A stretch of 64,000 bases of DNA from an uncultured Thermoplasmatales archaeon (lineage in GTDB: Archaea > Thermoplasmatota > E2 > DHVEG-1). This document shows, piece by piece, positions 26,745 to 45,130 of the stretch. Made by a program: the position numbers and the translations under genes. The stretch covers positions 882-64,881 of the forward strand of contig CAZGIV010000001.1 of assembly GCA_964526175.1 (NCBI GenBank). The letters are read 5' to 3'. Position 1 is the first letter of the stretch. Each line of letters starts with the position of its first letter. The notes beneath the pieces were generated by a model. It ran no database searches and was not told the DNA's origin. It saw only the letters and a program-made list of their open reading frames with translations.

Positions 26745-29700
26745 TCAAAAAATGGATCATGATTTAGGGATACCCCTTTGCGATGATTATTTCTTCGATG
26801 AACCAGAAGCAATCGAACAAGAAGAAAAAATGCCTGAGCCAGCCAGTACTATCCAAAAAATCTCAGAGGTTGTAACACGGAAGAAAAAACGGATTATCTA
26901 CGGGGATGTACTCATTGTTGGAGCGGGAATCTCAGGAATGCAATCCGCTCTGGATATCGCAGACAAAGGATACAAAGTCGTTATCATTGATAAAACATCT
27001 ACGATCGGCGGGGCGATGGTAAAACTTGATAAAACATTTCCCACGAATGACTGCTCGATTTGTACCGCTGCCCCAAAAATGGTTGAGCTCGCTCGTCATC
27101 CAAATATTGAACTTATTACCTATGCTGAGATGAATAAACTTGTTGGTAAAAAAGGTGACTTTACCGCACAGATCTGGAAAAAAAGTAAATATGTTGACCC
27201 GGATAAGTGCACGGGATGCGGTGATTGCGCCGAAGTCTGTCCCGTTGAAATCATAAGTCCGTTTGATGAAAAAATATCGACACGAAAAGCTGTCTACATT
27301 GAATTTCCACAAGCAGTTCCAATCGTGTATACGGTCGATATCGAAAAGTGCGTTGGTTGTGGTTCTTGCGACAGGGTCTGCGAACCAGCAGCGATTAGTT
27401 TTTTAGAAAAATCAGAAGAAATTGAAGTTCATGCAGGAAGCATTATCATCGCGACCGGTTTTGAGGTCTTTGAACCAACAGAAATTCGAAAAGAATACGG
27501 ATACGGGAAATACGAAAACGTCCTCACCGCAATGCAAATCGAACGACTGCTTTCTTCGTTTGGACCAACCAGTGGTAAGGTCCTACGTCCCTCAGATTAT
27601 AAAAAACCAAAAAAAATCGGATGGATTCAATGTGTCGGCTCACGAAGCGAACAACAAGGGTACCCATATTGTTCACGTGTGTGCTGCATGTACGCAACCA
27701 AGGAAGCATCCATTGTCAAAGAATCAAATCCAGAGATAAACATCACTATTTATTATATGGATATCCGTGCCTATGGAAAGGATTTTCAACAATACTATGA
27801 TCATGCGAAAAAACTTGGAGTCAAATATGTTCGTGGACGACCATCCTCAGTATATGAGAATAAGAATAAGAGTCTGATAGTACGGTATAAGGATACCCTC
27901 ACAGGAAAAATCAAAGAGGATACGGTTGATCTGTTAGTCTTATCAACATCCATTATTCCTGCGAAAGGAAATAAGAAACTTGCAGAAATCATTGGCTTAG
28001 AAGTCGATGAAAATGGTTTTTTCAAACAGGAGTCTCTCCTTGAGAACCCAGTAGAATCCTCTAAAGAAGGCGTGTATCTGGCAGGATGTATCCAAGGACC
28101 AAAAGATATCCCGGATAGTGTTTCCATGGCCAGTGGGGCTGCTGCAAAAGCGGTTGCTCCGATTAAAGATCGACAACGACATATCGGCAAGGAATTTCCT
28201 CCTGAAAAAGACATTTCCAAAGAAGAGCCACGCATTGGTGTATTTGTGTGTCATTGTGGGAAAAACATTGCTGGGTATCTCGATGTTGAGAAAGTCACTG
28301 AGGAAGTAAAAAAACTTCCGAATGTTACTCATGCTGAACATGTCATGTTTGCCTGTTCACAGGATAGCGGTAAAAAAATCAAAGCTCTCATCAAAGAAAA
28401 AAACCTGAATCGTATTATTGTTGCAGCGTGCTCACCCCGGACCCATGGAGGGTTATTCCAAGATACCTTACTTGAAGCAGGGTTGAATAAATATTTGTTT
28501 GAAATGGCGAACATTCGAAATCAATGCTCATGGGTTCATTCGGATGATTGGGAGAAAGCAACCATAAAAGCTATTGATTTAGTAAAAGCATCTGTCGCAA
28601 AAGTATCTCTTCTTGAACCTCTCAGTGAGGAAGAGTTTTCCATTCTTCCAAGTGTGCTTGTCATCGGCGGGGGAATTTCAGGGATGAAAGCAGCACTGGC
28701 ACTTGCTGAGATGAATGTGAAATCCTATCTTATTGAACGAGAAAAAGAACTCGGTGGCCGCCTCAAACAACTCAATACGATGTTTCCTACAGATAAAAAA
28801 GCCCAGGACATCATCGATCCGTTAATTAAAAAAGTCACGACGAATAAATTGATAACGGTAATGACGGGTGCCGAGCTTGTTAGCATTGAAGGATTTATCG
28901 GGAATTATAAAGGGACAATTAAACAGAAAGGAAAAAAGAAACAGCTTGGCATTGGAACAATTATTGTCGCAACCGGTTTTCGAGAAATTGATCTTAAAGG
29001 AGAATATCAACATAAAATAAATGAAAATATTTTATCTCAGACAGAGCTTGAGGAAAAAATTAAAAAAGGGACATTGAAAAAACCCAAAAATGTCGTCATC
29101 ATCAATTGCGCAGGAGCAATGGATGAACAACGACCGTATTGTTGCCGTATTGGGTGTGGAGTTGCGATTAAAAACGCAAAAGTAATTAGTGAAAAGTACC
29201 CCGGCTCAAAAATCTATCTCTTATATCGTGACATGAGGGTGTTTGGGAAAGAGGAAGAAGAATATTATTCGAACGTTATTAAAAATCATCATGTGACGGT
29301 TATTCGCTATCCCGGTGAGAAAAAACCAGAGGTTATTCTTGATAAAAAAGATCCGAAAAAGGGTCCGATGAAGATTAAAGTCTATGATGATATCCTTGAA
29401 GAGGAGCTGACGCTTCCTGCAGATCTCGTTGTTCTTACCGTGAACACTGAAGGTGAGGTGCTGACAGAGTCGCTGAAGAACATGCTGAAGATACCAGCTG
29501 ATTCCGCAGGATTCTTTTTAGAGGCCCATGCAAAAATCCGTCCGTTGGATTTCGCAACCGATGGGATTTACCTTTGCGGAGCGGCCCATTACCCGAAGAA
29601 TCTCGTTGATTCTATTGCTCAAGCAGAAGGTGCTGCATCCCGTGCAGCAATCCCGATTATGCAGGAGAAAATGAAAGGAGAAGGCCAAGTTGCAGAAGTC

Positions 29701-29940
29701 AATGAAGAGTTGTGTAGTGGCTGTAAGACCTGTGAACAACTGTGTGCCTATTCTGCCATTGAGATAAAACCACGGCAGAATGACCCTGAACATTTTGTTG
29801 CTACGGTAAATAAAGCACTTTGTAAGGGATGCGGCTCATGCGCAGGAGCGTGCCCGTCCGGTGCGATCGAACAGAAAGGGTTCCGGAGTAAACAAATCCA
29901 AGTCATGCTTGAAGCACTCCTTGGGGCAGGTAAAAAATGA
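26725..29940 (+). CDS. hdrA: Tandem double-HdrA fusion: an N-terminal HdrA-like FAD/ferredoxin module lacking the CHCG N-domain, joined to a complete canonical HdrA. The start may be the Met at 26752, just after the korC stop.
   Basis: First FAD fold VLIVGAGISGMQSALDIADKGY with inserted ferredoxins CTGCGDCAEVCP and CVGCGSCDRVCEP plus YCSRVCCMYA. Then the canonical HdrA N-domain RIGVFVCHCGKNI...ACSPRTH...ANIRNQCSWVH. Second FAD fold VLVIGGGISGMKAALALAEMN. C-terminal CSGCKTCEQLC...CKGCGSCAGACPSGAI. Confidence 0.7.
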   Translation: MPSKKNNQKMDHDLGIPLCDDYFFDEPEAIEQEEKMPEPASTIQKISEVVTRKKKRIIYGDVLIVGAGISGMQSALDIADKGYKVVIIDKTSTIGGAMVKLDKTFPTNDCSICTAAPKMVELARHPNIELITYAEMNKLVGKKGDFTAQIWKKSKYVDPDKCTGCGDCAEVCPVEIISPFDEKISTRKAVYIEFPQAVPIVYTVDIEKCVGCGSCDRVCEPAAISFLEKSEEIEVHAGSIIIATGFEVFEPTEIRKEYGYGKYENVLTAMQIERLLSSFGPTSGKVLRPSDYKKPKKIGWIQCVGSRSEQQGYPYCSRVCCMYATKEASIVKESNPEINITIYYMDIRAYGKDFQQYYDHAKKLGVKYVRGRPSSVYENKNKSLIVRYKDTLTGKIKEDTVDLLVLSTSIIPAKGNKKLAEIIGLEVDENGFFKQESLLENPVESSKEGVYLAGCIQGPKDIPDSVSMASGAAAKAVAPIKDRQRHIGKEFPPEKDISKEEPRIGVFVCHCGKNIAGYLDVEKVTEEVKKLPNVTHAEHVMFACSQDSGKKIKALIKEKNLNRIIVAACSPRTHGGLFQDTLLEAGLNKYLFEMANIRNQCSWVHSDDWEKATIKAIDLVKASVAKVSLLEPLSEEEFSILPSVLVIGGGISGMKAALALAEMNVKSYLIEREKELGGRLKQLNTMFPTDKKAQDIIDPLIKKVTTNKLITVMTGAELVSIEGFIGNYKGTIKQKGKKKQLGIGTIIVATGFREIDLKGEYQHKINENILSQTELEEKIKKGTLKKPKNVVIINCAGAMDEQRPYCCRIGCGVAIKNAKVISEKYPGSKIYLLYRDMRVFGKEEEEYYSNVIKNHHVTVIRYPGEKKPEVILDKKDPKKGPMKIKVYDDILEEELTLPADLVVLTVNTEGEVLTESLKNMLKIPADSAGFFLEAHAKIRPLDFATDGIYLCGAAHYPKNLVDSIAQAEGAASRAAIPIMQEKMKGEGQVAEVNEELCSGCKTCEQLCAYSAIEIKPRQNDPEHFVATVNKALCKGCGSCAGACPSGAIEQKGFRSKQIQVMLEALLGAGKK

Positions 29941-30362
29941 AGAAGAAAATTGAGAAAAACAAAAAGTTTAGTAAGATCGTATTCAAAAAAGGAGGCCTTG
30001 CCAAGGAAGTTGAAGACCTCTGTGGAGAAAATCTGTTCGGGTGCTACCAATGCGGAACATGCTCCGCGGGATGTCCCTTTGTTGATGACATGGATCTCGC
30101 ACCCGATGAAGTCATCCGATATGTTGTTCTTGATCGGTCAGAGGTCCTGAGTTCAAAGACCATTTGGTTGTGTTCCTCATGTTTCACCTGTGCTGAACGA
30201 TGTCCACGTGACATTAATATTACAAAAATTATGGAGGCACTTCGTCAGATAATTCTTCGAAAAAAAATTGATCAGAGTAATCCAATAAAAATATCAAAAA
30301 AAGAGCGAGAATCTATTCCTCAGCTCGCCTTTGTAAGCTTGTTTAGAAAAAATGTTGGATAA
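29937..30362 (+). CDS. hdrC: Heterodisulfide reductase subunit C-like (2x[4Fe-4S])
   Basis: CYQCGTCSAGCP...CSSCFTCAERCP. Overlaps the hdrA stop by 4 nt. Confidence 0.7.
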   Translation: MKKKIEKNKKFSKIVFKKGGLAKEVEDLCGENLFGCYQCGTCSAGCPFVDDMDLAPDEVIRYVVLDRSEVLSSKTIWLCSSCFTCAERCPRDINITKIMEALRQIILRKKIDQSNPIKISKKERESIPQLAFVSLFRKNVG

Positions 30363-30376
30363 AAGAACAATAAAAA

Positions 30377-31282
30377 GTGAGTAGCATGAAACTGCTCTAT
30401 TACCCCGGATGTACCCTAAAAACCTCTGCAAAAAACCTTGAGAAGACAGCAATCGAAGTCACCAAGGCTCTTGGTCATGAACTAGTGGAAATGAAAGATT
30501 GGAATTGTTGTGGCGTAGTCGCTTCACTTACTAGCGATGATCTGATGCGTCACCTTGCCCCCTTACGGAATTTAATTCACGTGGAGGACGAAGGGGAAAA
30601 CAAGGTAATAACACTGTGTGATATGTGTTGTAACACATTAAAACAAACAAATCTTCGTGTGAAAGAAAAACCTGAGGACCTCAAGACGCTTAATGCGTTT
30701 ATGGACCGGGAGAATGACTATAAAGGAACTGTTTCCGTGCTTCACTTTCTTGAATTTCTCCGAGATGAAATCGGATTTGCCACGTTGAAAAAAAAGGTAA
30801 AAAATCCTTTAAAAGGGATAAAAATAATGCCCTATTACGGGTGCATGCTACTTCGTCCACGGGAAGTAAGTATCGATGACCCAGAAGAACCAACAATTCT
30901 CAGTGACCTGCTCAGATCCCTTGGCGCTGAGACTGTCGATAATCCGTTTAAAATAGAATGTTGTGGGTCGTACAATACCGTTGAGCAAAAAGAAATTGTT
31001 TCCCGAAGAGCACATCGAATCACAAGCTTTGCACTCGACCAAGGTGCTGATGCCATCGTACTCTCCTGTCCGTTATGCCGGTTTAATCTTGACATGAGAG
31101 GAAAAGAAGCAGAGAAACTTTTCAAGGGATACAAACAAATACCGGTCTATTATTACACCCAACTAATCGCAGTTTCATTAGGGCTTGACCATAGTGTCTA
31201 TGGTTTCGACCAGCATGTGGTTGATCCAACTCTATTGTTGAAAAAAAAGGGGATTTTAGAGAGTAGAAGGATAAAAATCTAA
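30377..31282 (+). CDS. hdrB: Heterodisulfide reductase subunit B-like (two CCG domains)
   Basis: LLYYPGCTLKTSAK...NCCGVV and ...ECCGSYN... are CCG-domain signatures. Confidence 0.7.
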   Translation: MSSMKLLYYPGCTLKTSAKNLEKTAIEVTKALGHELVEMKDWNCCGVVASLTSDDLMRHLAPLRNLIHVEDEGENKVITLCDMCCNTLKQTNLRVKEKPEDLKTLNAFMDRENDYKGTVSVLHFLEFLRDEIGFATLKKKVKNPLKGIKIMPYYGCMLLRPREVSIDDPEEPTILSDLLRSLGAETVDNPFKIECCGSYNTVEQKEIVSRRAHRITSFALDQGADAIVLSCPLCRFNLDMRGKEAEKLFKGYKQIPVYYYTQLIAVSLGLDHSVYGFDQHVVDPTLLLKKKGILESRRIKI

Positions 31283-34291: not shown

Positions 34292-34723
34292 ATGAAAAAA
34301 GAATTTGAACCAAACATCATAGGCTTTCTCTGTAACTGGTGTAGTTATGCAGGAGCAGACCTTGCAGGAACCAGTCGACTGAAATACCCTTCGAATATTA
34401 AATCGATTCGGGTCATGTGTTCAGGTAGAGTCGACCCTATCTTTATTCTGGAAGCGTTAAAAAAAGGTGCTGATGGTGTTCTTGTCGCAGGATGTCATCC
34501 CGGAGATTGTCATTATCAATCAGGTAATTATAAGACAAATCGGCGAATAAAACTATTAAAGAAACTTCTTGGGGAACTCGGGGTTGAACCCGAGCGAGTA
34601 CGTTTTGAATATATCTCAGCATCAGAAGGACAGAAATTCGCTCAAGTTGTCACTGATTTTGTTGCTGAGTTAAAAAAACTTGGACCAAATCCAATTAAGG
34701 AAGAAACATGCATATCGATATAA
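34292..34723 (+). CDS. mvhD: MvhD-like hydrogenase/Hdr-associated [2Fe-2S] subunit
   Basis: IGFLCNWCSYAGADLAGTSR...IRVMCSGRVDP...GCHPGDCHY is the MvhD/FlpD signature. Confidence 0.7.
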   Translation: MKKEFEPNIIGFLCNWCSYAGADLAGTSRLKYPSNIKSIRVMCSGRVDPIFILEALKKGADGVLVAGCHPGDCHYQSGNYKTNRRIKLLKKLLGELGVEPERVRFEYISASEGQKFAQVVTDFVAELKKLGPNPIKEETCISI

Positions 34724-36138
34724 AAAAATTACAAGAAATTGTTGGGGTAGAAAACGTTCGTGATAATATCGCTGATCGCTATGTCTATGCTTCTGATGCC
34801 TCTGTTCACCGTCATCTCCCTGACATTGTTGTAAGACCAAGCACTATCGAAGAAGTCCAACATATTCTTCGCTATGCGAACGACAATAAAATCCCTGTTG
34901 TTCCCCGAGGGGCAGGATCAGGGATGTCCGGACAGACCGTCCCAATTGCAGGTGGCATTGTTCTTGATATGAAGCGAATGAACAGAATTATCGAGATACG
35001 ACCAGAAGATGTTCTCTGTAAAGTAGAACCCGGTGTGATTAACGATGAGTTAAACCGGGTGCTCAAGCCATCTGGGTTTTTCTTTCCTCCGACACCATCC
35101 TCAGGAATGATTTGTACAATCGGAGGAATGATTGGTACAAACGCGTCAGGAAACCGCTCGGTGAAATACGGTGCAACTCGCGATGCTATCTTAGGGATGA
35201 AAGTTGTTCTTGCAAACGGTGAACTCGTGACCCTTGGCTCAAATACCAGGGTTGATTCATCAGGTTATCAACTCGCCAAACTCATGGTTGGCTCCGAAGG
35301 GACGCTAGGGATTGTCGTAGAAGCGACATTATTAATATCTCCGATACCGAAATACCGGGCGATGGGAGTAGCGAATTTTTCAAGCCTTGAAGACGCAGGA
35401 CGAATGATCTCAGATACAATTGCATCAGGTATCACTCCATCCATGCTTGAACTTATGGACAATGTCGCAATCACTGCGGTGAATAACGCTCAGCATCTCG
35501 GCTTACCAGATGTTGCAGCGATCGTCATCTTTGAATGCAATGGAATGGTCAAAGAAGCAGTAGACCATGAGATGAAACGGATTTCAGAAATATGTGAAAA
35601 GCATCAGGGAACTGGAGTGAAGATAAGTGACGATCCAAAAGAGATGAAACGGATTTATGAAGGAAGACAGAAGTTGTTCCCTTCCCTTTCCCGCTACGGG
35701 GAAGGCATGGTGTCCACTGCTCTTGCAGATGATATGGCGGTCCCTATGTCAAAAATTGCTGATGCAGTTCATGAAATTCACGAGATTGCGAAACGTAATA
35801 ATGTTGTGATGAGCGCGTACGGTCATTGTGGAGCAGGATTGATTCATACAAAAATTTTGATGGATACTAATAAAAAATCCCAGTGGCAGGATGCAAAAAA
35901 AGCAGTAAAAGAAGTCTATGAGTACATCCAGGCACTCGGGGGGACCACCTCTGGTGAACATGGAATAGGGATTTCAAAAGCACCATCTTGGAAAGAAGAA
36001 AAAAAAGATTCATTAGCATTAATGAAAGCCATTAAAAAAACATTTGACCCAAATAACATCCTGAATCCTCAAAAACTTATGGATGCACCAGAAGACTGGT
36101 TGACAGCAACACCACTTCGTTATCACATGTCCGCCTAA
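34708..36138 (+). CDS. glcD: FAD-linked oxidase (GlcD/D-lactate dehydrogenase-like, PCMH-type FAD-binding)
   Basis: ...PVVPRGAGSGMSGQTVPIAGGIVLDMKRMNRIIE... is the FAD-binding PCMH domain. C-terminal GlcD-like domain. Paired with an HdrD-like CCG protein downstream. Confidence 0.65.
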   Translation: MHIDIKKLQEIVGVENVRDNIADRYVYASDASVHRHLPDIVVRPSTIEEVQHILRYANDNKIPVVPRGAGSGMSGQTVPIAGGIVLDMKRMNRIIEIRPEDVLCKVEPGVINDELNRVLKPSGFFFPPTPSSGMICTIGGMIGTNASGNRSVKYGATRDAILGMKVVLANGELVTLGSNTRVDSSGYQLAKLMVGSEGTLGIVVEATLLISPIPKYRAMGVANFSSLEDAGRMISDTIASGITPSMLELMDNVAITAVNNAQHLGLPDVAAIVIFECNGMVKEAVDHEMKRISEICEKHQGTGVKISDDPKEMKRIYEGRQKLFPSLSRYGEGMVSTALADDMAVPMSKIADAVHEIHEIAKRNNVVMSAYGHCGAGLIHTKILMDTNKKSQWQDAKKAVKEVYEYIQALGGTTSGEHGIGISKAPSWKEEKKDSLALMKAIKKTFDPNNILNPQKLMDAPEDWLTATPLRYHMSA

Positions 36139-36163: not shown

Positions 36164-37267
36164 GTGACAACAACAAAGAAAACATCTCATCTTCAAAAAC
36201 ATGAACAAGAAATGAACGTATGCATCAGATGCGCGTATTGTTTTGAACAATGTCCCGTTATCAGAGAAGTGCAATGGGATACTGAAGGCGCTCGTGGGAA
36301 AGTGATTCTTGCCTATGGGATTCTGACTGGTGAAATTGAACCGTCTCAGTATATCGCTGACAAGCTGTTCCGGTGCACATTCTGCCGTGATTGTTTAGAG
36401 CGATGTCCGTCAAAAGTGAAGATCCTTGAAATTATTTCCTCCGCTCGGGCGGACATGGTAGAAGCAGGATTTGCTTCTGATATACAAAATCATGTTGTTC
36501 AGAACATTCATACCACCGGGAATATCTATGGCGACAAAGAGGTCGTTTCACAAGAACGAGAAGGAAAAACTCCCTTGTTCATTGGATGTCAATATCTCGG
36601 ACGACCCAATAAAACAAAAAAATACATTAAAATCTTAGAGGAAATCGGAATCTCTCCTGTTGTGAAAAAGGAAGTGTGCTGCGGATACCCTCTAGAAGTC
36701 CTTGGGTTCAAAAAAGAGTTTACCATCCATAAAGAGCAATTCCAGAAATCTTTCCCATTTAAAGAAGCGATGACATTATGCCCAACATGCACCATATTTT
36801 TACACGAAGGACATAACATTAACGCGAAACATGTTCTACAGGTAATCAGCGAAAAAATCCCTTCTGCACACCTGAATATGAAAGTGACCTATCATGATCC
36901 CTGTGATTTTTCACGAGGGTTAAAACTTATTGAAGAACCACGAAAGATACTCAAAAAACTTGGTGTTGACGTTGTTGAGATGGAGACAAATAAGCAAAAT
37001 TCCCGGTGTTGTGGTGGAGGAGGCGGCATCCTCATGTCTGATCAATCTCTTTCAAATGATATTGCAAAAAAACGAATTCATGAAGCCTTGGACACCGGGA
37101 CAGAAATCCTTGTAACTTCCTGTCCAACGTGTGAACAGGTCCTTAAAAAAGCTGCTCAGGAAATCGGTGAAGCAGAAGGGAAGACAATGATCATTCGCAG
37201 CATTGAAGATATCATCTGGCAAGGAATTCAGGAGGCGAAAAAAAGTGCTGAAGCTACTAAAGCTTGA
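36164..37267 (+). CDS. HdrD/GlcF-like Fe-S oxidoreductase (two ferredoxin-type 4Fe-4S motifs plus two CCG domains)
   Basis: CIRCAYCFEQCP and CTFCRDCLERCP, followed by ...CCGYP... and ...CCGGGGGILM... (CCG domains). Confidence 0.65.
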   Translation: MTTTKKTSHLQKHEQEMNVCIRCAYCFEQCPVIREVQWDTEGARGKVILAYGILTGEIEPSQYIADKLFRCTFCRDCLERCPSKVKILEIISSARADMVEAGFASDIQNHVVQNIHTTGNIYGDKEVVSQEREGKTPLFIGCQYLGRPNKTKKYIKILEEIGISPVVKKEVCCGYPLEVLGFKKEFTIHKEQFQKSFPFKEAMTLCPTCTIFLHEGHNINAKHVLQVISEKIPSAHLNMKVTYHDPCDFSRGLKLIEEPRKILKKLGVDVVEMETNKQNSRCCGGGGGILMSDQSLSNDIAKKRIHEALDTGTEILVTSCPTCEQVLKKAAQEIGEAEGKTMIIRSIEDIIWQGIQEAKKSAEATKA

Positions 37268-38306
37268 TCATCTTCAAGGCCAGCAATCCATGCTTATTTT
37301 CCATGCACTCGCGCGTCTCGGGTTCGAAGGACTAGTACTAGTGTCTCCAGATATACCGTTAGCATCGATAGGATATTTCCAGGATGCAGAAAAAGAAATT
37401 GATCTTGCAGCCTGTAAAAAACTAGGGATTCCAGTGATGCGGCGGGAAGTTGGTGGTGGAGCAACCTATCTTGATCATAACCAAGTATTTTATCAACTGA
37501 TTTGGCGAAAGGGACACCTGGCGTTCCCAACTCGGGTAAAAGACATCTTCTCCGTGCTCTCACAACCAGTATGTGATACGTACCATGACTTCGGCATTGA
37601 AACACACTTCAGAGCAGAAAATGACATCATCACAAAAAACCAGCGGAAGATTGCTGGTGAAGGCGGTGGAGATATAGGCGAAAACATAGTGTTTGTTGGC
37701 GGTATTCTTCTGGATTTTGATTTTTCAACGATGAGTAAAATCCTTAAAGTTCCTGATGAAAAATTCAGGGATAAAATCTATAAAAGCATGGAAGAAAACC
37801 TTACGACGATGAAACGAGAATTAGGATACTTACCTGCTCGAGAGGAGGTAGTAACTTCTCTGGTTACAAATTTTGAACACCTTCTTGGGCCTTTGCAACC
37901 GATGATTCTTACCTCAGATGTTTTTGATAAAATGATCGAGCTTGAGCAACTATTCACCTCTGATAGATTCTTGTTTAAAAAAACCCCACGAATCCCTAAC
38001 GGTGTTAAAATCCGCGAAGGAGTCGAACTGCTCTATAGCACCTATAAAGCACGAGGAGGGTTAATTCGAACGTCCCAGGAGATTAAAGATAATATGATCC
38101 AAACAATAGGAATCTCAGGTGATTTTCAGTTCTATCCTAAATCAGAGCTGAGTGGATTGGAACAAAACCTTCAACAAACCAAACGAAAAGAACACGAATT
38201 GATTTCCAAAGTTGAGGATTTCTATCATGAAAACAAAATAGAAAGCCCAGGAGTAGAACCTGAGGATGTTTCTGATGCAATCATGGAGGCAAAAAAAAAT
38301 GATTGA
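37245..38306 (+). CDS. lplA: Lipoate-protein ligase A-like enzyme (BPL/LplA/LipB catalytic domain plus C-terminal domain). Probable GTG start at 37245 with a GGAGG SD, which overlaps the upstream gene.
   Basis: Catalytic motifs MRREVGGGATYLDHNQVF (RRxxGGGAVxHD-type) and KNQRKIAGEGGGDIGENIVFVGGILLDFD (lysine motif RK-x-AG). Confidence 0.65.
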   Translation: MLKLLKLDHLQGQQSMLIFHALARLGFEGLVLVSPDIPLASIGYFQDAEKEIDLAACKKLGIPVMRREVGGGATYLDHNQVFYQLIWRKGHLAFPTRVKDIFSVLSQPVCDTYHDFGIETHFRAENDIITKNQRKIAGEGGGDIGENIVFVGGILLDFDFSTMSKILKVPDEKFRDKIYKSMEENLTTMKRELGYLPAREEVVTSLVTNFEHLLGPLQPMILTSDVFDKMIELEQLFTSDRFLFKKTPRIPNGVKIREGVELLYSTYKARGGLIRTSQEIKDNMIQTIGISGDFQFYPKSELSGLEQNLQQTKRKEHELISKVEDFYHENKIESPGVEPEDVSDAIMEAKKND

Positions 38307-38787
38307 TTCAAAAAAATTAGATCCGAATTTTAAATATGAAGTATCTGCAGAAATTGGTGGAACAAATATTAATCGATGTTTCGCCTGTGGAACCTGTACC
38401 GCAGGATGCCCCGTCCGTGAGATTGATGAAAAATATAATCCACGAAAAATCATCCACATGGTATTGCTTGGGATGAGAGAACGTGTATTAAAAAGTGATT
38501 TCATCTGGCTCTGTTCTACCTGTTACACTTGTTATGATCGATGCCCGCAGGATGTACAATTAACCAGCATTATGACCGCATTAAAAAACATCGCGGCGCG
38601 TGAGGGATATATCCATCCGTCCTTTAAGGAACAAAACCGTCTTGTAAGCACCTTTGGACGATTATATGAAGTCGAAGATTTTGATAATAAAAAACGAGAG
38701 AAACTAGGTCTACCCCCTATACAAAAGACATTTGAAGATCTCACAAAACTTATGCATGATATGCTACCAAAAGAGGTGACGAAATGA
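38299..38787 (+). CDS. hdrC: Heterodisulfide reductase subunit C-like
   Basis: CFACGTCTAGCP...CSTCYTCYDRCP. The likely start is ATG 38299 (SD GGAGG 8 nt upstream), overlapping the lplA-like stop by 8 nt. The ORF track begins at 38266. Confidence 0.65.
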   Translation: MIDSKKLDPNFKYEVSAEIGGTNINRCFACGTCTAGCPVREIDEKYNPRKIIHMVLLGMRERVLKSDFIWLCSTCYTCYDRCPQDVQLTSIMTALKNIAAREGYIHPSFKEQNRLVSTFGRLYEVEDFDNKKREKLGLPPIQKTFEDLTKLMHDMLPKEVTK

Positions 38788-39665
38788 GATATGCACTATT
38801 CCTTGGATGTACAATCCCGGTTCGAGGGCAGAACTATGAACTGTCAGCACGTGAGGTTGCAAAAAAACTTGACATTGATTTTCTTGATGTCCCAGAATTC
38901 TCCTGCTGCGGGTTTCCCGTAAAATCATCCAATTATGAGGCGTCATTATTAATTGCAGCACGGAATTTAGCGATCGCTGCTGAAAAAAAAGAAAAAATCT
39001 GTACGTTATGTAACGCATGCACCTCGGTTCTGACTGAGGCGAATAAGGAATTGACAAAAAATAAAGAACTCAGAGAAAAAATCAACAAGGAACTTGCAAC
39101 AGTTGATAAAGAATTCAAACCAGGAGTCGAAATTAAACATTTCTCACGGATTCTTTATGAGGACATCGGCATGGATGCCATTCGAGAAAAAATTAAAACA
39201 GATCTGAGCAAACTCAGTATGTCGATTCATTACGGGTGCCATTACCTCAGACCCTCAGAATTATATGATTGTTTCGATGATGCAGAAAACCCATCGACGG
39301 TCGAAAACCTTGTGGCAGTGACGGGAGCCGCAGTCGTTGATTATAAAAACAAGTTAGATTGTTGTGGAGGAGCGATTCTTGGTGTAGAAGAAGACATCGC
39401 GTTGTCCATGGCGAAACAGAAACTCGATCATATCACCGCAAACAAGGTTGATGCATTAGTCACCATTTGTCCGTTTTGTTCAATTATGTATGAGGATAAC
39501 CAGAAGAAAATTGAAACAAAATTCAATGTGAATTATAACCTGCCGGTGTTGTATTATCCACAGGTACTTGGTCTTGCGTTAGGAGTTGATCCAAAACAAC
39601 TCGGGTTCCGACTCAATAAAGTTCGACCAACAGCAATTCTTGAAAAACTCGGGGTGACCCTGTAA
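38784..39665 (+). CDS. hdrB: Heterodisulfide reductase subunit B-like
   Basis: ALFLGCTIPVRGQNYE...SCCGFP...CCGGAILG is the CCG signature. Overlaps hdrC by 4 nt. Confidence 0.7.
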   Translation: MRYALFLGCTIPVRGQNYELSAREVAKKLDIDFLDVPEFSCCGFPVKSSNYEASLLIAARNLAIAAEKKEKICTLCNACTSVLTEANKELTKNKELREKINKELATVDKEFKPGVEIKHFSRILYEDIGMDAIREKIKTDLSKLSMSIHYGCHYLRPSELYDCFDDAENPSTVENLVAVTGAAVVDYKNKLDCCGGAILGVEEDIALSMAKQKLDHITANKVDALVTICPFCSIMYEDNQKKIETKFNVNYNLPVLYYPQVLGLALGVDPKQLGFRLNKVRPTAILEKLGVTL

Positions 39666-42600
39666 TGAAAAACTCTTCGAAATCTGGTAAAATAGGCTCA
39701 GTTCTCGTAGTTGGCGGCGGTATTGGAGGCATGCAAGCTGCCCTTGATCTCGCTGACTCCGGGTTTAAAACCTATCTGTTAGAGGAAAAACCAGCGATTG
39801 GTGGAGTCATGGCCCAACTCGATAAAACATTTCCAACCAATGATTGTTCTATGTGCATTCTTTCCCCGAAACTCGTAGATGTGGGCCGACACCCAAATAT
39901 CGATTTAATTACATATGCTGATTTGCAAGAAATCACAGGGAACAGCGGGAATTTTCAAGTGAAAATTCGTAAGAAAGCAAGTTATGTAGACTCTGAGAAA
40001 TGCACAGGGTGCGGTGAATGTGCAGAAGTCTGCCCGGTAGTTCTTGAGTCTGAGTTTGATGAAGGCTTATCCGATCGTCATGCAATCTATAAAATGTATC
40101 CTCAAGCTATTCCTAATGTCTTTACTATTGATAAAATCGGGATCCCGCCGTGCATGAATGCATGTCCGGCGAATGTGAATGTTCAGGGATACGTTGCATT
40201 GATTCGGGAGGGAAAATTCCAGGAAGCCGCGGATCTTATCCGTGAACGTAATCCATTCCCGGGAGTCTGCGGAAGGATTTGTACCCACGTCTGCGAGGAG
40301 AACTGTAATCGGAAGGAAATTGATGAAGCAGTCGCTGTTCGAGCCTTGAAACGATTTGCTGTTGATTATGAACGGCTCCATGGCCGTAAAGAGACAAAGA
40401 AAAAGAAAAAACAGGTTGAATTACGTGGACAAAACCGTAAAATAGCAGTAATCGGCTCTGGTCCTGCTGGGTTAACGGTTGCATATGATCTTGCGAGAAT
40501 GGGGTATCACCCAACTGTTTTTGAGGCACTCTCACAAGCAGGGGGAATGCTTCGGGTTGGTGTTCCGAATTATCGTTTACCACCAGAAGTCCTTGATTAT
40601 GATATTAAAATAATTCAGGAGGAAGGAGTAGAAATTCGAACGAATACTCCGATAGGTCCTGATCTGACGTTAAATGATTTACATAATGCAGGATATGAAG
40701 CTGTTTTTATTGCGATTGGGACGCATAAAAGCAAGAAACTCGGGATCGATGGTGAAGAATTAGATGGTGTTGTGCACGCAGCAGGATTCTTGCATGATCT
40801 GGGAAGTGGAAAAAAGGTTGATTACGAGGGAAAAATTGTTGCGGTTATCGGCGGAGGAAATGTTGCGATTGATTCGGTCCGAACCGCACTCCGACTGGGA
40901 GCAAAAACAGCATTTGTTATTTATCGTCGTTCTCGTACTGAAATTCCTGCGAATAAAGAGGAATTAGAAGAATGCGAGCGTGAAGGTATTTCGTTCTATT
41001 ATCTAGCTGCACCAACAAAAATCCTGGGTAAAAAAGGGAAGGTAACTGGGTTAGAATGTGTCCGAATGAAACTTGGTGAGCCTGATGATACTGGTCGGAG
41101 ACAAGCCATACCAATAGAAGGCTCAACGTTTACTCTTGATGCTGATGTGGTGATCTCAGCAATTGGCCAAGCACCGCTCTTATCCCCGCTTGCGGAAGCG
41201 GAAGTTGAGTTAGGGTTAAACAAAGAAGGTATCGTTTCTGTTCCTATTCAGAACCTTGAATTAGAAGGCGTCTATGGTTTCACCGCTTTTCTACGTGCCC
41301 TTAGCATGGGTCAGAAAATCGAAATTGGGAAAAAAGTTATTGTTGTCGGAGGGGGAAACGTTGCAATTGATGTTGCTCGGTCAGCACGACGTATCGGAGC
41401 AAAGGAAATCCACCTCATGTGCGTTGAATCCCATGAGGAGATGCCTGCATTTGATTATGAAATTGAAGAAGCAGAACAAGAAGGAATCATTATTCATACG
41501 AGACGGATGCCAAAACGAATCATCGGAGTCGGTGGTCGTGCAATTGGCGTCGAAACCCTCCAGTGTACGTCTGTGTTTGATGAAAAAGGGCGGTTTAACC
41601 CTCAGATCCGACCAAATACTGAATCAGTTATTGAAGCAGATACCATCATCGTTGCTATCGGTCAGGAAGTTGACTATACACTTCTAAAAGCAGCAGATGG
41701 TGTCCTGGTCACAAAACGTGGGTTACTCCAAGTCGATAATTTAACGTATCAAACGAATATCCCCTGGATTTTTGCTGCTGGTGATGCAGTGGTTGGACCA
41801 GGGCTTGTCATTGAAGCAATCGCGCAGGGCCATGAGGCAGCAATCTCCATTGATCGACATCTCAATGGGGAAGAACTATATGAGGGAAGACCCGGAAAAG
41901 AACATATTGTAGCCCCGAAACCTGATAAAAAATTTGAAAAAAAACCTCGGGTGACAATCCCTAAACTTGATGTTGAGAAACGTGTCGAATCTTTTGAAGA
42001 AGTAGAACTTCCGTTAACAGAGGAACAGGCTCGTCTAGAAGCTCAACGGTGTTTAAGTTGTAATTTCTGCTCAATTTGTAAACAATGTGTTGAAGCATGT
42101 GAAGCAGACGCAATCGATCATGATATGAGTGAAAAAATCATTGAACTGAATGTTGGATCAGTGATTTTTGCACCAGGATATGAATTATTTGATGCAACAT
42201 TGAAAAGCGAATATGGGTATGGACGATATAGAAACGTGCTCACATCACTTGAGTTTGAACGAATCCTGTCTGCATCAGGACCATACGCTGGCCATGTGGT
42301 CCGACCGTCTGACCAGAAAGAACCACGAAAAATAGCGTGGATACAATGCGTTGGATCACGTGATAACGCTTGTGGGAAAAATTATTGTTCATCGGTCTGT
42401 TGTACATACGCGATTAAAGAAGCAGTCATAGCAAAAGAACACGCACCCAACATTCAACCAACCATTTTTTATATGGATATGCGCACCTACGGGAAAGGCT
42501 TTGAATCATACTATAATCGCGCGGAAAAAGAATACGGTGTCAGATTTGTCCGATGTCGTATCTCCTCAGTCGAAGAGGATAAAAAAACCAAGAATCTCTC

Positions 42601-44632
42601 AATCAAATATGAAACAGAGGAAGGAACCCTGAAAAAAGAGGACTTTGACCTGGTGATTCTCTCGGTTGGTTTTACCTCCAAAGAGACCATGAAGGATTTA
42701 GCAAAAAAAGTAGGGATATCCCTTAATGAGTTTGGGTTTTGTCAAACCCCTGAGTTTGAACCGCTTGATACCGCACGTCGAGGTGTGTTTGTTTGTGGTG
42801 CTTTTTCAGGTCCAAAAGATATCCCTGAAACAGTCATGGAAGCATCAGGTGCTGCAGCAAAAGCAAGTAGTGTGATCGCTTCAGAACGAAACACGCTTGT
42901 TGAAAAGAAAGAATACCCGCTCGAGCGAGATGTCTCCGGCGAAGACCCAAGGATTGGGGTGTTCATTTGTCATTGTGGGATAAACATTGGAGCATATGTG
43001 AATGTTGAATCAGTGGTTGATTACGTAAAATCGCTGCCAAATGTGATGTATGCTGAAGAGAACCTCTACACATGCTCAGAGGATACGCAACGCAAGATTA
43101 TAGAAAAAATTAAGGAACATAAGTTAAACAGAGTCATTGTTGCTTCGTGTACTCCGCGGACCCATGAACCATTATTCCAAGAAACAATTCGGGAAGCAGG
43201 ATTAAATCCTCATCTTTTTGAGATGGCAAACATCCGAGATCAGTGCTCCTGGGTGCATATGAAGGAGCCAAAAGAGGCAACAGAGAAAGCAAAAGGGATT
43301 GTGAGAATGGCAGTCTCAAAAGCGCGCCTGCTTGAACCGATACAGACGATTGAATTGAATGTGACGCAGAAAGCATTAGTAATTGGTGGTGGACTTGCTG
43401 GGATGATAGCAGCACTCACAATTGCTGACCAAGGCTTTGAAGTGTTCCTTGTTGAAAAAGAAAAAGAACTGGGGGGCAATCTTCAGAATATTTCATGGAC
43501 TCTTGAGGATCATGATGTCAGGCCATACATGAGATCAATCGTTGAAAAAGTAGAGAAACACCCAAAAATCAAGGTGTTTAAAAAAGCAACGGTCGATAAG
43601 GTCGATGGATATGTTGGGAATTATACGACAACGCTGAAGAATGGTGCGACAAAAGTCAAAATTGAACATGGTATAATCATTGTCGCAACAGGAGCCGAAG
43701 AGTATAAACCAACAGAATATTTGTATGGGAAAAACAATCATGTCATGACACAGTTAGAGCTCGAGAAACATCTTGCTACTGGTACCGGGTTTGGCAAAAA
43801 TACTATTGTGATGATTCAATGTGTCGGTTCCCGGGAAGAAAACCGACCGTATTGTAGTAGAATCTGTTGCACTGATGCGATTAAAAATGCGTTGAAAATT
43901 AAAGAACGGCACCCAGATACAGAAATTTTCATTTTATATCGTGATATGCGAACCTATGCGTTCCGGGAAACATACTATGAGAAAGCACGTGACAAGGGTG
44001 TTCTTTTTATTCGTTTTGATAAAGATCAGAAACCAATAGTGAAAAAAGGAAAAGATGGTCTGGAAATCGAAACACGAGATATCATCCTTGGAGAAAAACT
44101 GTTGATTCATGCGGATTATCTGATTCTGAGCTCTGCGATTATTCCTGCAACGGATAATGAGCAGCTGGCAAAAAAACTGAAGGTTCCTCTGAATGAAGAT
44201 GGATTCTTTTTAGAGGCGCATGTGAAACTTCGACCTGTTGATTTTGCAACAGAAGGTATTTTCCTAACCGGTATGGCACATTCTCCAAAATCGATTACGG
44301 AAACAATTGCGCAATCCTATGGCGCAGCAGCTCGAGCGTTAACGATCATTTCGAAAGATAAATATTACACGGATGCACCCATCGCATGCGTCAGTGAAGA
44401 CCTGTGTAGTGGTTGTGGTGTCTGTGAGAAGATATGTCCATATAATGCGATAGAGATGGTTGCTGTTTCCAAGGATGGAAAAGAGGGGAGAGTGTCCCGT
44501 GTTATTGAAGCAGTATGTAAGGGTTGTGGGAGTTGTATTGCAGCGTGTCCGTCAGGTGCGATAGATCAGAAAGGATTCAAGCGGGAGCAAATCATTTCTA
44601 TGGTTGATGCAGCGGCAGAACAGGGTACATAA
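39665..44632 (+). CDS. hdrA: Giant HdrA fusion (1655 aa): an N-terminal HdrA-like FAD/ferredoxin module containing an inserted GltD/NfnB-like NAD(P)H-binding module, followed by a complete canonical HdrA
   Basis: VLVVGGGIGGMQAALDLADSGF...DKTFPTNDCSMC...CTGCGECAEVCP. GltD-like N-domain ...CPANVNVQGYVALI...NPFPGVCGRICTHVCEENC.... Rossmann folds KIAVIGSGPAGLTVAYDLARMGY and VIGGGNVAIDSVRTALRLGAK. Then ...YCSSVCCTYA.... Canonical N-domain RIGVFICHCGINI...CTPRTH...ANIRDQCSWVH. ALVIGGGLAGMIAALTIADQGF. C-terminal CSGCGVCEKICP...CKGCGSCIAACPSGAI. Confidence 0.7.
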   Translation: MKNSSKSGKIGSVLVVGGGIGGMQAALDLADSGFKTYLLEEKPAIGGVMAQLDKTFPTNDCSMCILSPKLVDVGRHPNIDLITYADLQEITGNSGNFQVKIRKKASYVDSEKCTGCGECAEVCPVVLESEFDEGLSDRHAIYKMYPQAIPNVFTIDKIGIPPCMNACPANVNVQGYVALIREGKFQEAADLIRERNPFPGVCGRICTHVCEENCNRKEIDEAVAVRALKRFAVDYERLHGRKETKKKKKQVELRGQNRKIAVIGSGPAGLTVAYDLARMGYHPTVFEALSQAGGMLRVGVPNYRLPPEVLDYDIKIIQEEGVEIRTNTPIGPDLTLNDLHNAGYEAVFIAIGTHKSKKLGIDGEELDGVVHAAGFLHDLGSGKKVDYEGKIVAVIGGGNVAIDSVRTALRLGAKTAFVIYRRSRTEIPANKEELEECEREGISFYYLAAPTKILGKKGKVTGLECVRMKLGEPDDTGRRQAIPIEGSTFTLDADVVISAIGQAPLLSPLAEAEVELGLNKEGIVSVPIQNLELEGVYGFTAFLRALSMGQKIEIGKKVIVVGGGNVAIDVARSARRIGAKEIHLMCVESHEEMPAFDYEIEEAEQEGIIIHTRRMPKRIIGVGGRAIGVETLQCTSVFDEKGRFNPQIRPNTESVIEADTIIVAIGQEVDYTLLKAADGVLVTKRGLLQVDNLTYQTNIPWIFAAGDAVVGPGLVIEAIAQGHEAAISIDRHLNGEELYEGRPGKEHIVAPKPDKKFEKKPRVTIPKLDVEKRVESFEEVELPLTEEQARLEAQRCLSCNFCSICKQCVEACEADAIDHDMSEKIIELNVGSVIFAPGYELFDATLKSEYGYGRYRNVLTSLEFERILSASGPYAGHVVRPSDQKEPRKIAWIQCVGSRDNACGKNYCSSVCCTYAIKEAVIAKEHAPNIQPTIFYMDMRTYGKGFESYYNRAEKEYGVRFVRCRISSVEEDKKTKNLSIKYETEEGTLKKEDFDLVILSVGFTSKETMKDLAKKVGISLNEFGFCQTPEFEPLDTARRGVFVCGAFSGPKDIPETVMEASGAAAKASSVIASERNTLVEKKEYPLERDVSGEDPRIGVFICHCGINIGAYVNVESVVDYVKSLPNVMYAEENLYTCSEDTQRKIIEKIKEHKLNRVIVASCTPRTHEPLFQETIREAGLNPHLFEMANIRDQCSWVHMKEPKEATEKAKGIVRMAVSKARLLEPIQTIELNVTQKALVIGGGLAGMIAALTIADQGFEVFLVEKEKELGGNLQNISWTLEDHDVRPYMRSIVEKVEKHPKIKVFKKATVDKVDGYVGNYTTTLKNGATKVKIEHGIIIVATGAEEYKPTEYLYGKNNHVMTQLELEKHLATGTGFGKNTIVMIQCVGSREENRPYCSRICCTDAIKNALKIKERHPDTEIFILYRDMRTYAFRETYYEKARDKGVLFIRFDKDQKPIVKKGKDGLEIETRDIILGEKLLIHADYLILSSAIIPATDNEQLAKKLKVPLNEDGFFLEAHVKLRPVDFATEGIFLTGMAHSPKSITETIAQSYGAAARALTIISKDKYYTDAPIACVSEDLCSGCGVCEKICPYNAIEMVAVSKDGKEGRVSRVIEAVCKGCGSCIAACPSGAIDQKGFKREQIISMVDAAAEQGT
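42251..42654 (+). repeat. Gene-conversion tract shared with the paralogous hdrA at 50095-50498. The core 42395-42654 is 100% identical at nucleotide level. A ~58-nt divergent patch at 42337-42394 interrupts it.
   Basis: Direct comparison of the two copies: 260 consecutive identical nucleotides, flanked by only protein-level similarity. The encoded peptides are identical (...CCTYAIKEAVIAKEHAPNIQPTIFYMDMRTYGKGFESYYNRAEKEYGVRFVRCRISSVEEDKKTKNLSIKYETEEGTLKKEDFDLV). Confidence 0.8.
43163..43293 (+). repeat. Second gene-conversion tract: 131 nt identical to 51007-51137 in the paralogous giant hdrA
   Basis: Identical nucleotide string encoding ...HEPLFQETIREAGLNPHLFEMANIRDQCSWVHMKEPKEATEKAK in both genes. 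Flanks differ. Confidence 0.8.
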
Positions 44633-44701: not shown

Positions 44702-45130
44702 ATGACTGAGCGATTTGAACCATCGATTCTTGCATTTTTGTGTAACTGGTGCAGTTATGCAGGAGCAGATCTTGCTGGTACTAGCCGGATGCAGTACCCG
44801 ACGAATGTGAAAATAATTCGGGTGATGTGCTCTGGTCGGGTGAATCCTTCCTTTGTGTTAAATGCGATGCAGAGTGGTATTGATGGTGTTATTATTGGAG
44901 GATGTCATCCAGGGGAATGTCACTACAACCAGGGGAATTATCTCACACGACGTCGTATTACTCTGCTCAAACTGCTCCTAGAATACGTCGGGATTGACCC
45001 TCGTCGTGTTCAAATGACCTGGGTGTCTGCTTCCGAAGGTGGTAAATTTGCTGAGGTGATGAAAAAGGTTACTGAGGAGATTCGAAAGCTTGGTCCCATT
45101 CAGCAAATAAAAAGGAGTAATGAATGGTAG
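44702..45130 (+). CDS. mvhD: MvhD-like [2Fe-2S] subunit (second copy)
   Basis: ILAFLCNWCSYAGADLAGTSR...IRVMCSGRVNP...GCHPGECHY. Confidence 0.7.
   Translation: MTERFEPSILAFLCNWCSYAGADLAGTSRMQYPTNVKIIRVMCSGRVNPSFVLNAMQSGIDGVIIGGCHPGECHYNQGNYLTRRRITLLKLLLEYVGIDPRRVQMTWVSASEGGKFAEVMKKVTEEIRKLGPIQQIKRSNEW

Follow-up and report, generated by a model that had tools for sequence, protein, structure and literature searches.

A lipoate-protein ligase conserved in Hdr-type gene clusters of anaerobic archaea and bacteria, and a GcvH-like protein as its candidate lipoyl carrier

In an uncultured Thermoplasmatales archaeon, a gene at 37245-38306 of the 64,000-nucleotide (nt) stretch analysed here (assembly GCA_964526175.1, contig CAZGIV010000001.1, positions 882 to 64,881; this whole stretch is called the window below) encodes a lipoate-protein ligase, which we name LplX, within a cluster for heterodisulfide reductase (Hdr)-like proteins, a [NiFe] hydrogenase and a GlcD-type dehydrogenase. 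Comparison with related loci indicates that LplX is inherited together with CCG oxidoreductase modules (HdrC-HdrB-HdrA or an HdrD-like protein, usually with GlcD and often with Mvh subunits) and with a GcvH-like protein that carries a K-W-x-G signature at its lipoyl lysine. We propose that LplX is the dedicated ligase of this dedicated lipoyl carrier, whose dithiol/disulfide would be handled by the Hdr-type (CCG) sites, and we put the probability of this reading a little above one half (about 0.55). An earlier note on this DNA had suggested that a lipoylated carrier, rather than the heterodisulfide of coenzymes M and B (CoM-S-S-CoB), could be the disulfide on which these Hdr-like modules act. 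The comparative evidence presented below speaks for that suggestion: the placement of the ligase gene is conserved, its clade is distinct from the housekeeping one, and the GcvH of the window closely matches GcvH proteins encoded beside LplX and Hdr genes in other genomes.

The ligase and its orthologous group

The reading frame of the ligase is intact, being open from 37203 and running from a GTG at 37245 to a TGA at 38306. This GTG is the likely translation start, with an AGGAGG 10 nt 5' of it and homologues that start at the same residue. LplX is overlapped on both sides, because its start lies 23 nt inside the HdrD-like gene (stop codon at 37265-37267), whereas at its other end the ATG at 38299, which is preceded by a GGAGG and is the probable start of hdrC, overlaps its stop codon as ATGATTGA. 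Both the position between the HdrD-like and HdrC genes and the double overlap had been described in the earlier note, and both are borne out. Scans for promoters and terminators within the operon, made with bacterial-type models, gave nothing better than shuffled controls.

The Pfam family LplA-B_cat matches the ligase with an E-value of 2.8e-33 (116 bits), and Lip_prot_lig_C is found in the C-terminus at 23.2 bits, slightly below its cut-off of 24. Residues 266-349 match the NCBIfam model for the small subunit LplB (NF053749) with 58.5 bits, for a cut-off of 65, and the accessory (LplB-type) domain matches PDB 3R07_C with an E-value of 1.2e-10. The motifs VMRREVGGGATYLD and NQRKIAGEGGG are both found, in agreement with the earlier description of a complete LplA-type ligase with RRxxGGGA..D and RKIAG motifs. 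In an alignment of 75 homologues, R66, R67, G70-72, D77, N126, D127 and K135 are conserved in at least 97% of the sequences, a level that 99 of the 353 positions reach. LplX keeps the RRxxGGGxxxxD lipoyl-AMP-binding motif, the ND pair and the catalytic lysine (equivalent to E. coli K133), K135 aligning with the lysine of the Thermoplasma acidophilum and M. hyopneumoniae enzymes. In the AlphaFold model the catalytic domain has a predicted local distance difference test score (pLDDT) of about 70-95, and the C-terminal domain is poorly modelled (pLDDT <50). All top Foldseek matches of this model are lipoate-protein ligases, the best being T. acidophilum LplA (3R07_A, E=4e-20, template modelling (TM) score 0.82). 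Fold and profile matches, the motif with its lysine, and the accessory domain all place LplX in the LplA/LplB superfamily (PF21948/PF03099), and it is predicted to be a catalytically competent ligase in which the LplA and LplB types of domain are fused. Two cysteines, C57 and C110, were considered as clade-specific features, since they are invariant in an alignment of ten sequences, but they are not conserved among the 75 and were discarded.

A search of 5.8 billion proteins returned 3146 matches to LplX, the best 120 of which are all full length and 64-93% identical; those with a named source come from Thermoplasmatota, Promethearchaeota, one Euryarchaeota metagenome-assembled genome (MAG) and one unclassified bacterium. 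Scanning one genome per species gave 92 relatives, all of them in MAGs and from at least ten phyla, and 80 loci (numbered below with the prefix L) were kept, in which LplX is 48-93% identical to the protein of the window. The hosts belong to Thermoplasmatota, Promethearchaeota (Asgard), WOR-3, Stahlbacteria, TA06, Zixibacteria, Aerophobetes, Acidobacteriota, Syntrophaceae/Thermodesulfobacteriota and Syntrophomonadaceae. The named homologues include no cultured host, and a search started from the most divergent member did not yield one either. The closest relative by ligase (93% identity), in the Thermoplasmatota MAG DATLAF010000182, has an identical gene order and encodes a GlcD and an HdrB that are 99% and 98% identical to those of the window.

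Outside this group identity drops sharply, to 16-26% with the solved LplA structures and to 30% with a second, more canonical ligase encoded next to one of the LplX genes. The score against the housekeeping ligase equivalog TIGR00545 is 122 bits, compared with a cut-off of 280. Between archaea and bacteria LplX is 59-65% identical, more than the neighbouring HdrB (50-54%) and GlcD (33-47%). These values argue that the ligase lies outside the housekeeping clade, in a tight orthologous group of its own, and the idea of the earlier note, which was to fall if the ligase proved to be a housekeeping LplA in a position that is not conserved, passes the first of these tests. The more canonical Lpl(AB) is found in a groundwater archaeal MAG (L015, 17780-20393), fused to DUF116 and directly 3' of the LplX-Hdr operon. 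It is followed by a flavoprotein of the geranylgeranyl-reductase family, which is LipT-like and reminiscent of the sLpl(AB)-LipS1/S2 pathway, an arrangement seen in L015 only.

Conserved linkage and the candidate carrier

Neighbours were counted in the 46 loci that have at least 3 kb on both sides of LplX, with labels based on open reading frame (ORF) calls and on BLASTP to the proteins of the window (E <1e-6), so that divergent partners may be missed. A CCG protein (HdrB or HdrD-like) lies within 3 kb of LplX in 32 of the 46, GlcD within 5 kb in 33, and one or the other in 38. HdrA is found within 6 kb at 22 loci and GcvH within 10 kb at 18, in several of which it is directly adjacent or completes the operon. 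The HdrB that adjoins LplX is the orthologue of the window HdrB at 38784-39665 (49-98% identity, versus 28-41% for the two other HdrB paralogues of the window), with Aerophobetes as the exception. The second test of the earlier note, conservation of the operon placement, therefore comes out in its favour as well, the more so as the association persists through many rearrangements.

These rearrangements are extensive. LplX-HdrC-HdrB-giant HdrA-GcvH is the order in Promethearchaeota (CP070831) and in Thermoplasmata M9B1D, HdrC-HdrB-LplX-giant HdrA that in SG8-52-3, and HdrD-LplX-HdrC-HdrB-OsmC-giant HdrA-MvhD-GcvH that in L088/L089. In WOR-3 the string GlcD-LplX-HdrC-HdrB-HdrA-MvhG-MvhA stands behind a two-component regulator, and Stahlbacteria have two fusions in the order [GlcD-HdrD fusion]-LplX-HdrC-HdrB-[HdrA-MvhD fusion]-GcvH. 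Syntrophaceae show GntR-GlcD-HdrD-GcvH-HdrD'-NarI-like membrane protein-LplX, and an unclassified bacterium (L004) GlcD-HdrD-HdrD-LplX-DsrE-DsrF-DsrH-GcvH. The module is reduced to GcvH-LplX-[GlcD-HdrD fusion] in its minimal form, and a Zixibacteria MAG (L073, 514-3408) has GcvH-LplX-thioredoxin-thioredoxin reductase. The lactate racemase LarA and GntR/FCD regulators recur near LplX/GlcD loci. In the related loci examined, neither the recurring neighbour families nor the genes annotated with Pfam include gcvT, gcvP, E2 or lipA. In an Acidobacteriota MAG (L056, 5158-11056), LplX ends what appears, from the sequences only, to be an oxidative-stress operon with a PerR-like protein, peroxiredoxin, superoxide reductase, ferritin/rubrerythrin, a flavodiiron protein and flavin reductase.

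The GcvH-family gene that the earlier note had reported, with its lipoyl-lysine context, is complete. The encoded protein scores 124.2 bits against TIGR00527 (cut-off 115.85), also exceeds the cut-off of NF002270 and has its lipoyl lysine in the context QSAKW. Over all 144 residues it is 63-73% identical to GcvH proteins linked to LplX and Hdr genes, inside or at the end of the operon, in other genomes (L001, L013, L015, L017 and L018). With the linked GcvHs of Syntrophaceae and other bacteria the identity is 42-48%, and canonical GcvH structures score only about 95 bits. All 26 full-length linked GcvHs that were aligned, together with that of the window, have the signature (E/Q)-S-x-K-W-(V/L/I)-G-(K/R) at the lipoyl lysine (one with Q for G) and share a C-terminal extension, W-(L/V)-K-x-E-I; canonical GcvH has E-S-(V/T)-K-(A/S)-(A/V)-S-D at the lysine and an earlier C-terminal end. 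Among the GcvH-like domains in the best 150 cluster representatives from 1.84 billion proteins, 51 are of the K-W type and 35 of the canonical K-(A/S/T) type, many others being lysine-less fusion domains, which indicates that K-W is a real and sizeable subfamily and no local quirk. The only cysteines of the window protein, C63 and C93, are internal and unconserved in the clade. Its closest homologues are 68-97% identical, and one of them (P0155) shares a contig with the LplX locus L011.

The family also includes lysine-less forms. One protein of 1391 amino acids (aa) (P0241) and others have several GcvH-like domains without the lipoyl lysine, and many fusions of 200-560 aa end in a lysine-less GcvH-like domain, for instance at 19370-20296 of L018, where the N-terminal part is cysteine-rich.

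In the window, gcvH lies about 20 kb from the ligase, 3' of and co-directional (minus strand) with genes for a TrmB-like regulator, sucC, sucD and a 140-aa ORF, and fumarase genes (plus strand) adjoin. In a related Thermoplasmatales contig (L086), an Hdr/hydrogenase cluster closes with HycI-OsmC-GcvH, and the next genes encode fumarase, acyl-CoA dehydrogenase, LarA and a GlpA-like protein. As these are the same neighbours as those of the window gcvH, the 20-kb separation probably results from rearrangement, and the GcvH of the window would be a dedicated carrier moved away from its ligase. The regulator heading this string (20053-21141, minus strand, 362 aa) has two TrmB/MarR-like helix-turn-helix regions. 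The 140-aa ORF between sucD and gcvH (17471-17893, minus strand) has no Pfam or NCBIfam match and no homologue in any fetched locus.

Gene content of the window

The window is archaeal, with exosome subunits and ribosomal protein L37Ae encoded at 62-64 kb and a G+C content of about 41%. LplX belongs to a co-directional string of about 26.7-52.5 kb (Table 1), in the order HdrA-like, HdrC, HdrB, MvhG-like, MvhA-like, HycI-type protease, MvhD, GlcD, HdrD-like, ligase, HdrC, HdrB, giant HdrA and MvhD, and at its 3' end FrhB-like, Fe-S and NAD-binding proteins are followed by a second giant HdrA.

Table 1. Features of the window that bear on the ligase and its proposed partners
Feature	Position	Strand	Basis
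GcvH-like lipoyl carrier, K-W-x-G subfamily, lipoyl lysine K70	16963-17397	-	GCV_H E=1.7e-37
Paralogous set opening the string: HdrA-like (1071 aa), HdrC, HdrB	26725..31282	+	Pfam; equivalent position in L007, L008, L011
MvhG-like small subunit	31290-32309	+	Oxidored_q6
MvhA-like [NiFe] large subunit	32306-33763	+	NiFeSe_Hases
HycI-type maturation protease	33776-34267	+	HycI
MvhD (FlpD), directly 5' of GlcD	34292..34723	+	FlpD 3.7e-58
GlcD-type FAD-linked 2-hydroxyacid (D-lactate/glycolate) dehydrogenase	34708..36138	+	FAD_binding_4, FAD-oxidase_C; TIGR00387 404.6 bits, below cut-off 567.9
HdrD-like partner of GlcD, two [4Fe-4S] ferredoxin motifs and two CCG domains	36164..37267	+	CCG 4.8e-24, Fer4_8; best NCBIfam TfrB, below cut-off
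LplX, predicted fused Lpl(AB)-type lipoate (or octanoate)-protein ligase	37245..38306	+	Pfam, NCBIfam, conserved catalytic residues, fold match, ribosome-binding site and GTG start
HdrC-like ferredoxin subunit (ORF opens at 38266)	38299..38787	+	Fer4 dicluster Pfam; TIGR03290 125.5 bits
HdrB-like catalytic subunit	38784..39665	+	CCG 2e-26; TIGR03288 278.8 bits, below cut-off 345.15
Giant HdrA, 1655 aa, with inserted Fer4_20/Pyr_redox_2 (GltD/NfnB-like, NAD(P)H-type) module	39665..44632	+	Pfam
MvhD (FlpD), 3' of giant HdrA	44702..45130	+	FlpD 3e-57
Second giant HdrA, 1511 aa	47938-52473		Judged from sequence only
OsmC-family protein after third HdrCBA set; tentative part, possible consumer of reduced lipoyl carrier	60148..60543	+	OsmC 7.1e-14

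Both C..CCG..CxxC motifs of the CCG family (PF02754) are intact in the HdrB and in the HdrD-like protein that flank the ligase region. HdrC, like HdrB, scores below the equivalog cut-off for methanogen HdrABC, which is 160 bits for HdrC. The MvhG-like, MvhA-like and HycI genes are conserved neighbours in 13-15 related loci, and giant HdrAs of 1478-1884 aa stand 3' of LplX-HdrC-HdrB in L001, L002, L013, L015 and L088. The insert in the first giant HdrA suggests NAD(P)H-linked bifurcation.

A Pfam sweep of the 64 kb found no GcvT, GcvP, E2/lipoyl domain, LipA, radical-SAM protein or Mcr among the other large ORFs of the window, in line with the earlier observation that gcvT, gcvP and mcr genes do not accompany the carrier or the ligase here. 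It was also considered whether the giant HdrA or another part of the window conceals a lipoyl domain, but no Biotin_lipoyl match was obtained with Pfam, and tblastn of the window with E2 lipoyl domains returned nothing.

Other features of the window lie further from the ligase. The two giant hdrA paralogues share a 300-nt patch of 96% nucleotide identity (42377-42676 versus 50221-50520), compared with 71-81% in the other shared segments detected, which points to gene conversion between them or to a chimeric assembly. A second [NiFe] hydrogenase cluster (52484-56451, minus strand) lies between the second giant HdrA and the third HdrCBA set; its large and small subunits are recognised by Pfam, and its putative NAD-binding/FeS and Fer4_22-type subunits were assigned from their sequences and from a matching cluster beside OsmC-GcvH in L091. 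A LarA-type lactate racemase is encoded at 12207-13475 (plus strand) and has homologues near LplX in L014, L017, L063 and L032 and near GcvH in L086, which is consistent with lactate as the substrate of the GlcD module.

Interpretation and comparison with known systems

The comparison shows what the genes are and that they are intact, that the two clades (LplX and K-W GcvH) are distinct, and that their linkage is conserved; for the catalytic steps and the direction of electron flow we infer the following scheme. LplX would adenylate lipoate (or octanoate) and transfer it to K70 of the carrier, and the dithiolane/dithiol arm thus formed would be what the non-cubane Fe-S (CCG) sites of HdrB and the HdrD-like protein act on. 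In the HdrB of methanogens, non-cubane clusters bound by CCG motifs cleave the heterodisulfide (Wagner et al., 2017, as cited in PMC9239135). The lipoyl carrier would then be the counterpart of the CoM-S-S-CoB of methanogens, the DsrC of sulfate reducers and the LbpA of sulfur oxidisers, and might connect GlcD (with lactate/pyruvate) and Mvh (with H2) to the NAD(P)H-type insert of giant HdrA and, via the bifurcating flavin of HdrA, to ferredoxin. In Syntrophaceae, the carrier could also be linked to the DsrMK/HdrDE-like membrane module.

Several points weigh against this scheme. Gene linkage and sequence signatures form its whole basis, the related loci were collected with peptide patterns specific to LplX as seeds, and their genomes are not phylogenetically independent of one another. 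GcvH is not found within 10 kb of LplX in the window and in most WOR-3 loci, and the GcvH of the window exceeds the GcvH equivalog cut-off, so that a genuine role in glycine cleavage is possible. At 8 of the 46 fully flanked loci LplX occurs with neither Hdr nor GlcD; most of these are of a Syntrophaceae type, where the neighbours are HAD, MBL-fold and methyltransferase genes and LplX may be a second paralogue, and one is the locus of the Acidobacteriota MAG (L056). The more canonical ligase directly after the L015 operon implies that LplX need not be the sole or the modifying ligase. Finally, the standard potential E0' is about -290 mV for lipoamide, -140 mV for CoM-S-S-CoB and -190 mV for lactate/pyruvate, which makes both the reduction of the lipoyl group by lactate and the bifurcation of electrons from H2 to ferredoxin and lipoyl energetically tight. 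On these values lactate by itself would not suffice to reduce lipoamide, and lipoamide would be a weak "high-potential" partner in bifurcation. The module may instead work by confurcation (dihydrolipoyl and reduced ferredoxin to H2 or NAD(P)H), or the potential of the carrier may be tuned.

Of the alternatives, three are compatible with the core of the proposal and differ in what the carrier is for. The K-W GcvH could be a genuine H-protein of a glycine cleavage or synthase system encoded elsewhere, with LplX as its ligase, and with Hdr, HdrD-GlcD or thioredoxin in place of the L-protein (dihydrolipoamide dehydrogenase); these modules would re-oxidise or reduce the lipoyl arm, with transfer of electrons to H2, pyruvate, quinone or NAD(P), so that Hdr would still act on a lipoyl disulfide, on a carrier that is not free-standing. 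The scores of the window GcvH against TIGR00527 and NF002270 fit such a role, as does the description of lineages of this kind as amino-acid fermenters (PMC7015854). A class-V aminotransferase recurs near LplX at 10 loci. The GcvH-LplX-thioredoxin-thioredoxin reductase order of the Zixibacteria MAG is a further point for it, as this arrangement recalls the thioredoxin-linked atypical L-protein of Eubacterium acidaminophilum. With gcvT and gcvP absent from the window and from the surroundings of LplX and GcvH in the related loci examined, and with K-W-x-G in place of the canonical K-(A/S/T)-x-S-D beside the lipoyl lysine, we regard this role as unlikely; a literature search on Thermoprofundales and glycine cleavage found nothing. 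A role in the peroxide defence of strict anaerobes, in which Hdr and GlcD would keep the carrier reduced so that it can feed OsmC/Ohr- or peroxiredoxin-type peroxidases, fits the fact that Ohr/OsmC peroxidases take electrons from lipoylated proteins. OsmC stands directly upstream of K-W GcvH in L086 (7481-7942) and L091 (2380-2820), between hdrB and hdrA of the LplX operon in L088 (2637-3098) and L089, 3' of HdrA in L002 (15817-16251) and 3' of the third HdrCBA set of the window, a placement that may point to a lipoyl-dependent peroxidase. Peroxiredoxin, a PerR-like gene and thioredoxin occur near LplX in L060 and L076, LplX closes the apparent oxidative-stress operon of L056, and the carrier GcvH-L of S. 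aureus is reported to promote resistance to oxidative stress (PMC12440151). However, OsmC, tried as a universal partner, was detected in just a handful of archaeal loci, and the dominant partners across phyla (GlcD, Hdr and Mvh) belong to energy metabolism, which makes defence quite an unlikely main function. Still less probable, in our view, is the handling of sulfur by an anaerobic relative of the sulfur-oxidising sHdr system, in which the carrier would bind sulfane sulfur as LbpA does and the Hdr-like module would oxidise or reduce it. The sHdr-LbpA-sLpl(AB) system provides the precedent (PMC6067878), and DsrE-DsrF-DsrH-like genes lie between LplX and GcvH in L004, DsrE-TusA adjoins MvhD-HdrA near GcvH in L090, and rhodanese is encoded near the L002 operon. 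Yet sulfur-transferase genes are rare among the roughly 90 loci, Pfam detects no DsrE, TusA or rhodanese in the 64 kb of the window, the sHdr gene order is absent, and the two cysteines that define LbpA are missing from the window GcvH and unconserved in its clade (PMC6067878).

Two other readings would undercut the core of the proposal. LplX could be a general lipoate-salvage ligase whose position in an Hdr operon is functionally meaningless; it has every feature of an active ligase, some of its members lie outside Hdr clusters, and related archaea are predicted to import lipoate (PMC7015854). The linkage has nevertheless been kept in at least ten phyla through rearrangements and gene fusions, LplX goes together with one particular HdrB orthologue and one particular GcvH subfamily, and it is unusually well conserved from archaea to bacteria, better than HdrB and GlcD. 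Conserved linkage and clade specificity together make plain housekeeping very improbable. That LplX is a non-catalytic subunit, for which the second ligase encoded in L015 could be cited, is unlikely given its fully conserved catalytic residues.

The proposal that LplX serves a dedicated carrier for Hdr-type sites would, if correct, have wider consequences. Hdr-like complexes are common among non-methanogenic anaerobes, the Asgard relatives of eukaryotes among them, and metabolic maps draw their substrate as "X-S-S-X" (PMC7015854). More tentatively, and with somewhat less than even odds, lipoate on K-W GcvH, installed by LplX, might be this X-S-S-X carrier for MvhADG-HdrABC- and GlcD-HdrD-type complexes of non-methanogenic anaerobes in Thermoplasmatota, Asgard (Promethearchaeota), WOR-3, Stahlbacteria and Syntrophaceae. 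It would then be a third general solution beside CoM-S-S-CoB and DsrC, through which lactate, H2, NAD(P)H and ferredoxin could be coupled by flavin-based bifurcation or confurcation. The "atypical" use of lipoate known from sulfur oxidisers would then be shared by fermenting and syntrophic anaerobes in their energy metabolism, and the modelling of hydrogen and lactate turnover in sediments and digesters would change. A conserved operon with a carrier and a ligase of its own offers a specific, clonable and directly testable candidate for the disulfide of Hdr, and since a long-standing unknown is thereby turned into a defined protein pair, interest would be high if biochemistry confirms it.

The methanogen MvhADG-HdrABC complex reduces CoM-S-S-CoB by flavin-based electron bifurcation (cited in PMC9239135). 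The window encodes the same set of HdrA/B/C and MvhA/G/D subunits, with two intact CCG motifs in HdrB. In contrast to methanogens, it has no mcr, its HdrB and HdrC fall below the equivalog cut-offs, its HdrA is a fusion of 1655 aa, its operon includes a ligase gene, and the substrate that we propose is a lipoyl disulfide carried by a protein. The pairing of GlcD with the HdrD-like protein resembles the Dld-II/GlcD and CCG D-lactate dehydrogenase DVU3027-3028 of Desulfovibrio vulgaris (PMC4481167), where a FAD_binding_4/FAD-oxidase_C subunit is likewise paired or fused with a 4Fe-4S dicluster and two CCG domains. Here, however, the pair is flanked by a lipoyl carrier and a ligase, and no such partner is described in PMC4481167. 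The ligase itself is closest to LplA-LplB of T. acidophilum (PDB 2ART, 3R07) among solved folds, sharing the LKVPDEKFRDKI motif and an LplB-like accessory domain, although the two parts are fused in LplX, identity is about 20-26%, and about 99 near-invariant positions are its own.

A GcvH-like lipoyl protein as a soluble, cytoplasmic two-electron carrier has been floated once, for Pelobacter (PMC3543383). There the idea was speculative and tied to the Act complex and a classical dihydrolipoamide dehydrogenase, and it involved no Hdr, dedicated ligase clade or comparative support. For the cultured Asgard archaeon MK-D1, the partner of MvhADG-HdrABC is drawn as XSH/X-S-S-X and uptake of lipoate from partner organisms is predicted (PMC7015854). 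Beyond the sHdr-LbpA papers, this speculative lipoyl carrier and the papers that leave the Hdr substrate unnamed, we found no LplA-like or GcvH gene described in GlcD/Hdr/Mvh clusters of anaerobes in the open full-text literature (subscription-only literature lay outside the scope).

The closest parallel comes from sulfur oxidisers, both bacterial and archaeal, with their sHdr-LbpA-sLpl(AB) system (Cao et al., 2018, PMC6067878; Tanabe et al., 2023, PMC10332631). In both systems an Hdr-like complex is genetically tied to a GcvH homologue and to a dedicated LplA-family ligase set apart from the housekeeping ones, and DsrE/TusA-type genes occur nearby on occasion, in a few of the LplX relatives only. 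The hosts of LplX, in contrast, are strict anaerobes (fermenters or syntrophs) and no sulfur oxidisers, and its partners are GlcD, Mvh and a bifurcation-type HdrA with an NAD(P)H-type insert instead of hdrC1B1A-hyp-C2B2. LbpA is defined by a lipoyl lysine and two conserved cysteines, near the N- and C-terminus (PMC6067878), whereas the carrier of the window has the lysine K70 and the K-W-x-G signature but no terminal cysteine. The gene order of the window, GlcD-HdrD-LplX-HdrC-HdrB-giant HdrA-MvhD, differs from that of sHdr, the 64 kb hold no Pfam match to a sulfur transferase, and lipS1, lipS2 and lipT genes are likewise absent from the window. With two defining features of sHdr-LbpA lacking, the LplX system is predicted to work like sHdr-LbpA without being a member of it, as a distinct analogue set apart by the cysteines of LbpA and by its gene order.

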